A DNA stretch of 64,000 nucleotides from an uncultured Candidatus Peribacteria bacterium (GCA_964514565.1 CAZERA010000001.1:186001-250000), one strand, 5' to 3'; counted from the first letter of the stretch, positions 54,001-57,000 are shown. Numbers are program-made.

Positions 54001-57000
54001 GGCTGAACAAGATGGTACAGAACGAAAATCTTTAGCTCGTTTATTAGCATTAGATGACATGATTGATACATCTATTGCTACAAGATGGTCTGTTCCTGCA
54101 AGACAACGTACAGTGACTAGATCAACTGTTGGTGGTACTAACAGTGTTATCCAAAGTAAAAAGGTAGCTTAATTGTTTTATGCAACTAGGAGAAAATCCA
54201 TTAATACGTGATGCTGGAGTAGTTGATTTGCGAGATATTGTTGCTGGTGCTACTTATAAAGCTGAGCTTGAGGGTCCTGAAGCAGTAGCCGTACAGCGTG
54301 CAAGTATTGATGAAATTCTGGCAATGTTTAATCAAGATTATACCCGTGTTACCTCTTTTGCAGCAGAGGCTGCAACGCTAGATGGCTAGTAAGCCAGTCA
54401 GGCTGTTACAACTTCAAATATTAGTGTAGTAAAAGAGTAAAAGCTGCATAATTAGTGTTCTTTAGTAAAAAGCAGATGAATCCTTAAGGACATCTGCTTT
54501 TTTTGTGAGATTGATCAATGCTCTATCCAGGCTTGTACCAATCCTTATCCTTCGAGTACCGAAAAGATGCTCATCAGGCAAAGTAAGGATGAGGATGATG
54601 AGTAGGATAAGACACGTCATACCGCTGACGCGGTACTCGTATTGGTGTATCCGAGAGGATTCGAACCTCTGGCCTCAACCTCCGCAGGGTTGCGCTCTAT
54701 CCAGCTGAGCTACGGATACATATCAAAAAAGCACATGCCCAGAATACTGGAATTCTTTTGATAGTCAACATAATGATAGTTTTATTAAAACTTGATGAAT
54801 GTTCATCTGGTTTTAATGTATAGCTACTAGGTAAATCACTCACGAGTAGATACTGTCGACTATAGCCTAACTAGCATCATGTACGACTATTGTATCCTGG
54901 GTGGCGGAATTGTCGGAAAGTATCTTGCTCATTTATTGCAGGGCAAGAACATTGCATGGGTCAGTGGTCACAATCCACTCCTCACCAGCTCTGAGTCATA
55001 TCAGCTGGGATCTTATTTAGGTAAGCAAGATACCTGGCAAGAGAAGGCGACTGGTCTAATTTCATTTCCTGCAGCCGCAGATATCGCTACATTTCCTTTT
55101 TCATTGGAGGCTTATCAAAGCTATCAACATGAACTAATAGCCTCGTTGGCATTGAGGCACCTTCAGTCTTTGGGGAGTAAACCAACGTACCTACCTTTTA
55201 CGCAAGCTATCAGTAAACAATTTCCTGGAGCAGCATTGCAGTATTTCTGGAGTGGGCATACGCAATTAGAAGGGCCAAGTTTCGAAAATAGAGAACCATA
55301 TGAATATTATTGGCAAACTCAAAAACCACAGTGGGATTTTTTGGTTGGTAAGCCTGACTACTTACAAGCAGACTTTTTGAATGTGAATCGAAATGAGGCC
55401 GAGGCATTGGTGGGTCGGGACGAGAATGGCCAGCAGAAGGTAATCAAAGCACGCCATTTTATTCTTGCCTGTCATACTCCGGGCAATATTGCTTTGGTTC
55501 AGAACACCTTTGCTAAGCATCGGATGTTTACTGAACATATGGCTGCTGTGGGCCAATACTTCTCTGACCACTTACAATTGTCCTTTGGTTTCTTGGCTCC
55601 AGATCTGGAGATCCCTCGTACTAGTCTGGCTAGTATCTGTTTTCAAGATCGAGAAGTAGATGGATTGCGATTTCGATTGGAATTTCACAATGCTCCGCCT
55701 AGGGAAAACCTGATCCAGACTTGCTTGAGTAGGATGACTCAGTACAGTCAAGCAGATTTTTTTCATCATTTCATTCGTATTGTAGCTATAGCTGAATTCT
55801 CTCCTATGGCAAAATCCCAGTTATTTCTACAGAGCGGCGGCAGATACTCTATGAGTAAACAGTTCATTGCTACTATGCATCACTTGAGGGCCAAGCTAGA
55901 CACCTACTTAATGAAAGAGCTCTTTGCTCAGCTTCCCTGGTTTATGCTCAACCGACACCGCTCTATGTATTATGGTGGGCATTTAATTGGTGGGCTTAGC
56001 TTCCCAGGTGTTTTGAATGACAAGTTGGCTATGCATGATTTTCCCAATGTCAGTGTCGCAGGTAGCTGCTCTTGGCAAAGCGGTGGCTTGTTCAATCCTA
56101 CTTTCACTAGCTTGGTCTTTGCTAAGCATCTAGCAGCATCTTTACCCTGCTACTAATTATGATTCTAGTGATTCCTACCGCTGGGCTAGCCACACGTATG
56201 CTACCGCTCAGTTATGGATTACCAAAAGTATTGGTCAGTCATCATGATAAACCAATCTTTCATCATATTCTCAATTGTTATCGAGAGTTGGAGATTACAA
56301 AAGTGATTTTAGTGATCTCTCCTCAGCATCGTGAACTATTTGATCCTTTGATTGAATTATATCGTACAAAGTATCAGATAGAATTGGTAGTTCAACCTGA
56401 GCCTAAAGGTTTATTGGATGCTGTTATTTGTGGGTTAGAAAAGTCAGTACTTAAAGATCCAGTAGTAGTGCATTTGAGTGATGCTATTTTTGATCAGTGT
56501 TTTCTCTCGGCTGACTTTGAACGGAGTTTTGTTGCTGTCACTAAGGTACCAGCTGATCAGGTACAGCATTGGTGTATGGTGCAAGTGCAGAGTGGTGAAG
56601 CTGTAGGCTTTGTTGATAAGCCATTTATCAGTGATTGGTCTGATGCTATTACGGGAGTTTATTATTTCTCTGATCCCAAAAAACTTTACCAATCTTTAGC
56701 CGCGGTCAAAAAAGATCACAGCGCTTTGGCCAGCAGCAATATTAGTACTCTTTTGCGTCTATACAGTAAAAAAGTTCCTCTAGATGCTAAGTACTTAGCA
56801 TGTTGGTGGGATATGGGGACACTGTCCCATCTCCATCGTCAGCAGTTTTGTCACGTATTTGATGGTCACCAGGTGCAACAACATGCCGGTCAAATTACTA
56901 AGTCCGGTACGACTCTAGCAATCAAAAATGAGCTATTTTACTATCAAAACACTTTGGTGCTAGCCTGCTTTCCACGTTTGGATAAAGTTGAGGCGGATAG

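Follow-up and report, generated by a model that had tools for sequence, protein, structure and literature searches.

Bacteria as a rule read the arginine CGN codons via inosine, and the gene studied here raises the question of how a bacterium whose tRNA-Arg carries G34 reads them instead. The gene lies in a 64-kb stretch of DNA (64,000 nucleotides, further referred to as the window) from an uncultured Candidatus Peribacteria bacterium, whose genome is labelled G000; window positions 54643–54719 correspond to C1:240643-240719 of the contig. The initial annotation proposed that G000 decodes the CGN box by tRNAs with G34, U34 and C34, in the absence of tRNA-Arg(ACG) and of TadA. The reading by G34, U34 and C34 is supported by our analysis, whereas the rarity and novelty that were implied are not, as the arrangement is phylum-wide and already in print (in the relevant passages of PMC8629427). 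We consider it very probable that G000 reads CGN without inosine, having GCG, UCG and CCG tRNAs and neither tRNA-Arg(ACG) nor TadA, and that this is the common state of Patescibacteria (CPR).

The tRNA-Arg(GCG) gene

The one tRNA that ARAGORN predicts within the window is tRNA-Arg(gcg) at 54643–54719 on the minus strand, in agreement with the initial annotation. Rfam family RF00005 matches positions 54646–54719 of the same strand with 68.9 bits (E 6.1e-13), the gathering score being 29, and is the only Rfam family above threshold within the window. The features of the locus are:

54643..54719, minus strand: tRNA-Arg(GCG) gene, 77 nt (ARAGORN, Rfam RF00005 and sequence reading)
54741..54768, minus strand: promoter-like site with TTGACT and TATTCT spaced by 16 nt; its end lies 21 nt upstream from the tRNA's 5' end (consensus scan)
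54620..54635, minus strand: inverted repeat of 6 bp, TACCGC-GTCA-GCGGTA, 8 nt past the CCA end and without a T run (sequence reading)

The cloverleaf read from the sequence has an acceptor stem of 7 bp, a D stem of 4 bp, an anticodon stem of 5 bp and a T stem of 5 bp, all of them Watson–Crick paired. In the 7-nt anticodon loop CUGCGGA (C32 U33 G34 C35 G36 G37 A38), the anticodon G34 C35 G36 follows U33. The D loop is AGCUGGAUA, with A20 in GGAUA, and the gene ends with the discriminator A73 and an encoded CCA. The identity set of ArgRS, established in work on Escherichia coli, comprises A20, C35, G or U at position 36, and A or G at position 73. All of these elements are found in tRNA-Arg(GCG) as A20, C35, G36 and A73, and A20 and A73 are common to all five Arg tRNAs of G000. 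The genome encodes an ArgRS (argS; TIGR00456, 449.1 bits, above the cut-off), which is expected to charge this tRNA. It also encodes TrmD (279.9 bits); the G36-G37 pair would make tRNA-Arg(GCG) a TrmD substrate, and m1G37 is the predicted modification.

A string of 31 nt spanning the anticodon arm and T arm of this tRNA is identical in three relatives (G001, G004, G006) and differs by one or two changes in two others (G005, G007). The gene stands alone, and the flanking ORFs have no informative Pfam matches. The consensus scan gave two promoter-like sites with 2.1 expected from shuffled sequence, that is, the chance level, and the site at 54741..54768 is a weak promoter candidate by its position only. 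The inverted repeat at 54620..54635 was not called as a terminator by the terminator scan; it is possibly a hairpin for 3' processing or termination.

Arginine tRNAs and codon usage of the genome

The G000 assembly consists of 7 contigs with 1,117,677 bases (1.118 Mb), has a G+C content of 41–42% and is 92.66% complete. ARAGORN predicts 41 tRNAs and a tmRNA in the whole genome; the search with RF00005 in Infernal yields 39 tRNAs, each at an ARAGORN position and none additional. The arginine anticodons called by ARAGORN are gcg and cct on contig C1, ccg on C2, tcg on C4 and tct on C7. Both tRNA-Arg(GCG) (C1:240643-240719, minus strand) and tRNA-Arg(UCG) (C4:62277-62351) are found by the two programs, and tRNA-Arg(CCG) also stands where it had been reported (C2:30918-30992).

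In contrast to these, no tRNA-Arg(ACG) was found in the 92.66%-complete assembly by ARAGORN, by Infernal or by a relaxed stem-loop scan, again as initially claimed. The relaxed scan required that YU-ACG-NN be enclosed by a 5-bp stem and that a T-loop-like word come after it. It recovers the true GCG, UCG and CCG genes, and none of its 13 ACG-loop candidates stands in a tRNA context. The absence applies to the assembly: ARAGORN finds neither tRNA-Asn nor the Ser-UGA tRNA in it, and since some essential tRNAs are absent and completeness is 92.66%, a part of the genome must be missing from it.

Codon usage was computed from the 545 ORFs with 250 or more codons. Frequencies per 1000 codons are 14.9 for CGT, 8.3 for CGC, 6.2 for CGA, 2.7 for CGG, 9.2 for AGA and 2.0 for AGG. 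Hence CGU and CGC make up 53.5% of the arginine codons in these long ORFs, and no CGN codon is avoided.

G34 of tRNA-Arg(GCG) would pair with C and wobble with U, and thus would serve CGU and CGC. In general, U34 reads A and G, or possibly all four bases if unmodified, and C34 reads G. CGA and CGG would then fall to tRNA-Arg(UCG) and tRNA-Arg(CCG), whose genes are on C4 and C2, respectively, and U34 might also take CGG; AGA and AGG would be left to the UCU and CCU tRNAs. Such decoding would extend to the arginine box the usual bacterial scheme for four-codon boxes, G34 plus U34 with or without C34. With the CGN box fully covered by GCG, UCG and CCG, TadA would have no tRNA substrate and would be dispensable, and the tRNAs would be free of inosine.

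The class to which G000 belongs includes lineages with UGA = Gly, although G000 itself most likely uses the standard code with TGA as a stop. When TGA is treated as a sense codon, long ORFs gain little (429 versus 453 with a length of 300 aa or more), and nine of the ten longest stay the same; ARAGORN finds no tRNA(UCA) in the genome. On these two grounds code 25 (UGA = Gly) was rejected for G000.

Search for TadA in G000

Profile searches with NF008113 (TadA), PF00383 and PF14437 gave 0 candidates in the G000 contigs, while the same searches were positive in 12 or 13 of the 14 genomes used as controls. The candidate filter of the profile search missed a weak Cdd-like gene for PF00383, so that "0 candidates" taken alone is weak evidence. 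Because the filter proved insensitive, a motif scan and tblastn were added. The zinc motif [HC][AS]E...PCxxC has no match in the six frames of G000 with TGA read through. The tblastn queries, all from relatives, were a true TadA, an ambiguous deaminase from the same family as G000, a guanine deaminase, a second ambiguous deaminase and a cytosine deaminase. With these five queries no homologue was found in G000, the best E-value being 1.7. Thus, the initial claim that no tadA gene is present holds for the assembly; the positive controls G017 and G027, two genomes of the same class, score 151 and 104.5 bits with NF008113.

A looser motif scan returned 98 matches, one deaminase-like gene among them:

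C1:347609-348484, minus strand: 291-aa two-domain protein of the CDA fold, motif HAE...CGICRQ of cytidine-deaminase type

This protein scores 22.6 bits with PF00383, under the cut-off of 25, and its best NCBIfam models are those of cytidine deaminase (TIGR01354, E 4.3e-8). It was rejected as TadA, given that NF008113 is absent among its matches and that it has HAE...CGICRQ instead of HAE with PCxxC. The only deaminase-fold gene of G000 is, to judge from motif and profile matches, a weak cytidine-deaminase-like protein, presumably the sub-threshold hit g00301 of the initial annotation.

Distribution of GCG and ACG tRNAs in relatives

Two samples were searched, one of the class (300 genomes and G000, 301 in total) and one of the phylum (151 genomes). 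The GCG pattern was YUGCG-N15-GGUUCRANYCC, extending from the anticodon loop to the T arm, and the ACG pattern was the same with A34. In the class sample the GCG pattern is present in 170 of the 301 genomes including G000, with 1/301 for the reversed control, and ARAGORN calls tRNA-Arg(gcg) at 27 of 30 fetched loci (the exceptions are L024, L034 and L035). The figure of nine relatives among 40 given initially was thus an undercount. Within the family of G000 the pattern occurs in five of seven genomes, or six of eight if G000 is counted; two genomes of the same genus, G002 and G003 (85% and 93% complete), do not show it. It is found in all or nearly all members of families f9 (40/40), f18 (12/12), f25 (11/11) and f28 (12/13), and is nearly or wholly missing from f10 (0/40) and f13 (2/40). 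In the phylum sample, 100 of the 151 genomes have the GCG pattern, with one match in the control.

The ACG pattern is rare. It matches eight genomes of the class sample (control 4/301) and none of the seven in the family of G000. ARAGORN confirms a real tRNA-Arg(acg) at two of these eight loci, in G017 and G027, and both genomes are devoid of the GCG pattern. The other six loci were discarded: two belong to tRNA-Ser(gga), where they form the variable arm, one gave an odd call and three gave nothing. In the phylum sample the ACG pattern is present in 11 of 151 genomes, and ARAGORN confirmed the acg tRNA at 11 of 12 fetched loci, covering all 11 genomes. These matches cluster in families f54 (4/4), f58 (4/4) and f83 (2/2).

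Two observations concern the surroundings of the ACG genes. In f58 the ACG tRNA gene has a TadA-like gene on its downstream side, at a distance of approximately 300–500 nt. In the complete genome G349 the ACG tRNA is found only within a tandem array of five Arg tRNAs lacking CCA.

TadA and TadA-like proteins in relatives

NF008113 matches proteins in 174 of the 301 class genomes at E <= 1e-5. Only one match exceeds the curated cut-off, that of G017 (151 bits, profile positions 5–157); the second best is that of G027 (104.5 bits, positions 11–157), and all others score at most 89.7 bits. The G027 protein matches the TadA of Staphylococcus aureus (2B3J) over its full length with 117 bits. An "internal TAG" suspected in the G017 gene proved to be no more than the codon at which a 150-aa TadA ends. 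Full-length TadA matches are confined to G017 and G027, exactly the pair of genomes of the class that carry tRNA-Arg(ACG), and none occurs in the family of G000. This co-occurrence serves as an internal positive control, showing that the searches can detect the I34 system where it exists. Among ACG-bearing genomes of the phylum sample, NF008113 matches in nine of ten tested, the exception being G413 (68% complete). Matches extend to profile position 149 or beyond in G318 (165.9 bits), G345 (155.2), G395 (100.4), G322 (94.2) and G372 (86.1).

The initial annotation had left open the weak TadA-like hits in relatives, some of which carry tRNA-Arg(GCG). We extracted 29 of the 30 best-scoring ORFs, and the G017 gene was read separately. 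Most of the weak hits are proteins of 155–170 aa with GGPFGAVIV, DPTAHAE, EPCPMC, GFDD and a C-terminal Y. The G016 member of this group matches the guanine deaminase of Bacillus subtilis (1WKQ) over the full length (E 3.4e-44, 154 bits) and TadA structures in the core only, with at most 75 bits. In NCBIfam, TadA is the top model for all 15 scanned proteins, with 75–105 bits, apparently because no guanine deaminase model of that fold competes; such genes are therefore easily mislabelled as TadA. Neither bit score nor profile coverage alone separates diverged TadA (86–100 bits, families f83 and f58) cleanly from guanine deaminase (75–90 bits). The division was made from full-length matches to PDB proteins, the presence of GFDD and the C-terminal Y, and co-occurrence with tRNA-Arg(ACG).

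By these signs most of the weak hits are guanine deaminases of the B. subtilis type, and the rest, other enzymes of the CDA fold, some of them unclassified. We take the G215 hit to resemble cytosine deaminase of the yeast type, and hits inside ORFs of 300–450 aa are presumably RibD-like. The question is thereby largely settled, except for a few small deaminases of uncertain specificity. In the family of G000, small nucleoside deaminases of G004 and G006 have core scores that are alike on TadA and guanosine deaminase structures; the G006 protein (159 aa, from another genus of the family) scores alike on both over the core only. The G023/G060-type deaminase is likewise ambiguous in comparison with PDB sequences. 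Proteins of the G006 and G023/G060 types are devoid of the C-terminal FF-x3-R common to both verified TadAs, and their genomes are without the ACG pattern.

Alternative explanations

Three other explanations of the data from G000 were considered. The first is that CGN is read mainly by four-way wobble of an unmodified U34 in tRNA-Arg(UCG), the GCG tRNA being auxiliary and dispensable. Family f10 lends it some credence. There, both GCG and ACG patterns are absent from all 40 genomes, and in four members that are 100% complete the sole credible CGN-box match is a UCG tRNA; the CGN box of this family may be reduced to that single tRNA. A single UCG tRNA is also the published state of Mycoplasma haemofelis, as stated in the pertinent part of PMC3711424. 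As regards G000, however, more than half of the arginine codons are CGU and CGC, and the GCG gene is kept in 170/301 genomes of the class and 100/151 of the phylum, which makes this explanation improbable.

The second explanation is that G000 does use I34, with tRNA-Arg(ACG) and tadA in the unassembled part of the genome, about 7%, and the GCG tRNA as an extra isoacceptor. The completeness of 92.66% and several missing tRNAs leave room for such a pair, and two of the 301 class genomes do have ACG together with TadA. Nevertheless, ACG and GCG are mutually exclusive in the class tRNAs checked by ARAGORN: none of the 170 genomes with GCG has a confirmed ACG. The family of G000 has neither the ACG pattern (0/7) nor a full-length TadA match, and the pair would be redundant with GCG and UCG. 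Given this distribution in relatives, an assembly gap is an unlikely cause of the absence of ACG and TadA, and we regard hidden I34 decoding as a still slimmer prospect than four-way wobble.

Finally, ACG and GCG are one base apart, but there is next to no probability that G34 stems from faulty sequencing or assembly, or that an ordinary tRNA-Arg(ACG) gene underwent an A34G mutation very recently, since the 31-nt string with G34 is identical in G001, G004 and G006 and varies in G005 and G007 by one or two changes elsewhere, G34 in G000 is accompanied by G37 and not A37, and TadA is absent too.

Decoding of CGN in G000 by the GCG, UCG and CCG tRNAs thus remains the preferred explanation. A separate matter is how the few lineages with ACG and TadA came to have them. 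Inosine decoding in Patescibacteria could be patchy instead of simply missing, ACG and TadA having been regained when a G34-using ancestor received a tRNA-Arg(ACG)/tadA unit horizontally, and not retained from earlier. Re-acquisition of I34 would fit the gene adjacency in f58, the array in G349 and the small number of lineages concerned (G017, G027, f54, f58, f83), but we put it forward as a speculative and rather unlikely scenario.

Relation to known systems

The tRNA set of G000 has a direct precedent. According to the relevant passage of Shulgina & Eddy 2021 (eLife, PMC8629427), CPR use tRNA-Arg(GCG) for CGU and CGC, and tRNA(UCG) and tRNA(CCG) for CGA and CGG; the same set is found in G000. 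There it is a general remark within a paper on codon reassignment, whose main text contains the word "tadA" 0 times. Unlike the Absconditabacteria on which that remark's paper focuses in the part concerned, G000 has CGA and CGG at ordinary levels and apparently uses TGA as a stop. The ACG tRNA, described there as lacking in CPR, has exceptions, being confirmed in 2 of 301 class genomes and 11 of 151 phylum genomes.

The initial annotation named Mollicutes as the known case without TadA and missed the CPR (PMC8629427) as well as Thermotogae and Spirochaetes (PMC8007984, PMC6063277), as far as the relevant passages of these papers go. In the Mollicutes of the Pneumoniae group and in M. pulmonis, as described in the corresponding part of Yokobori et al. 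2013 (PMC3711424), tadA was lost, ACG was replaced by GCG and UCG was gained; in the model given there, G34 arises from A34 through point mutation. These Mollicutes have no tRNA-Arg(CCG), whereas G000 keeps it. Moreover, by that account the loss in Mollicutes is a late one inside a TadA-bearing clade, whereas in Patescibacteria it characterizes most of a phylum. Ehrlich et al. 2021 (PMC8007984) report, in the section concerned, GCG in place of ACG in all sequenced Thermotogae and Spirochaetes. Diwan & Agashe 2018 (PMC6063277), in the relevant portion, describe loss of the I modification in Spirochaetes and one proteobacterial class and trace TadA back to the bacterial root. Thermotogae and Spirochaetes are other phyla than that of G000, and the likeness to them is known from the papers alone. 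The control genome of Thermotoga maritima is positive for NF008113; the match may be another CDA-fold enzyme rather than TadA.

The pattern had also been likened to that of Archaea. Among the tRNAs compared, which were those of the class only, tRNA-Arg(GCG) resembles Arg tRNAs of its bacterial class in the D-arm GCUCAGCUGGAUAGAGC and the encoded CCA, and it is 71% identical to the class's two ACG tRNAs. A literature search that combined TadA with Patescibacteria or CPR yielded no article dedicated to the loss of TadA in CPR. The bearing of G34 in deep lineages on an ancestral TadA is reportedly also discussed by Rafels-Ybern 2019, a work that Shulgina & Eddy 2021 cite.

Implications

The tRNA side of G34-for-I34 arginine decoding in CPR is already known, as published in 2021 in the relevant passage of PMC8629427. 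G000 is one more example of the ordinary condition of its phylum and no peculiarity of this genome. Added here are the distribution counts, the co-occurrence of ACG and TadA in the class, and the identification of most weak TadA-like hits as guanine deaminases. As the NCBIfam TadA profile matches guanine deaminases at 75–90 bits, "TadA" annotations in these genomes need care, and assessments of how complete CPR genomes are cannot count tadA among the universal essential markers. More generally, the finding bears on how rigid the bacterial rule of reading arginine CGN codons via inosine is, and on whether the last bacterial common ancestor possessed TadA. Phylum-wide use of G34 in a deep lineage weakens the inference of TadA at the root, as drawn in the part of PMC6063277 concerned, a point that is already in the literature (the relevant passages of Shulgina & Eddy 2021).

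Phyletic distribution of tRNA-Arg(ACG) and TadA

Among the 301 Gracilibacteria genomes of the class sample, tRNA-Arg(ACG) was found in two only, G017 (loci L051 and L058) and G027 (loci L052 and L059), and the same two are the only genomes of this sample with a full-length TadA, the tRNA adenosine-34 deaminase. Since the tadA gene of G027 carries two in-frame TGA codons, it seems to be native to this TGA-recoded genome rather than a contaminant.

In family f58, the tRNA-Arg(ACG) gene is followed, after approximately 300–500 nt, by a TadA-like gene, which places the genes for the enzyme and its substrate next to each other. 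The following pairs of tRNA-Arg(ACG) and TadA-like genes were identified:
G322 C1:430648-431386, tRNA-Arg(ACG) and TadA-like gene
G435 C1:55025-55835, tRNA-Arg(ACG) and TadA-like gene
G416 C1:565926-566585, tRNA-Arg(ACG) and TadA-like gene

Genes for arginine tRNAs also form tandem arrays at two of the fetched loci:
L088 (G349 C1:~631700-632100), five tandem arginine tRNAs (acg, tcg, tct, ccg, cct)
L095 (G416), similar array of four tRNAs
The tRNAs of the G349 array are 74 nt long each, lack an encoded CCA and are separated by gaps shorter than 10 nt. Away from this array, G349 also contains the normal GCG pattern (the string from the anticodon loop to the T arm with G34), and no full-length TadA match was found in this genome. 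Both arrays may belong to mobile elements or phages.

Deaminase-like proteins

The studied genome, G000, encodes a single protein with the deaminase fold:
C1:347609-348484 (L001:1110-1985), minus strand, outside the window, two-domain cytidine-deaminase-like protein of 291 aa
The zinc ligands are lost from its N-terminal half, and the C-terminal half contains HAE...CGICRQ. The gene immediately upstream encodes a protein of 298 aa that carries a ParB-CE domain.

Guanine deaminases of the B. subtilis type are common in the class. Those of the relatives (loci L060-L087) score 75–90 bits with the NCBIfam TadA model (NF008113), and as this is their top NCBIfam match, they are at risk of being misannotated as TadA.

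tRNA set of the studied genome

Neither ARAGORN nor Infernal found tRNA-Asn, tRNA-Ser(UGA/CGA) or tRNA-Ala(GGC) anywhere in the G000 assembly; hence some tRNA genes reside in unassembled sequence. ARAGORN additionally predicted a tandem group outside the window:
C1:479357-479870, three tRNA-Ser(gga), about 220 nt apart
Infernal supports only the first copy (54.9 bits). The anticodon is oddly placed in the second and third, which may be tRNA-like repeats or pseudogenes.

Unusual tRNAs and CGN boxes in relatives

Two good-looking GCG anticodon-arm/T-arm strings on contig C27 of G174 (L034) were not called as tRNAs by ARAGORN; its prediction in G118 (L053), "tRNA-???(ac)", has an anticodon of two bases. 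In several genomes of family f31 (L028-L039), a tRNA(UCA), labeled SeC by ARAGORN, is located within 1.2 kb of tRNA-Arg(GCG); presumably, it is the Gly-UGA tRNA of code 25.

The GCG pattern occurs in none of 40 genomes of family f10 (e.g., G034, G067, G103, G111) and in two of 40 genomes of family f13, and its A34 counterpart, the ACG pattern, had no match in either family. In four f10 genomes with a completeness of 100%, UCG was the sole CGN-box anticodon with a credible tRNA match; no CGN-box tRNA was matched in G186, an f13 genome from a TGA-sense lineage. Possibly, the T arms of these families are missed by the pattern, or else their CGN box is reduced or decoded by a single tRNA.
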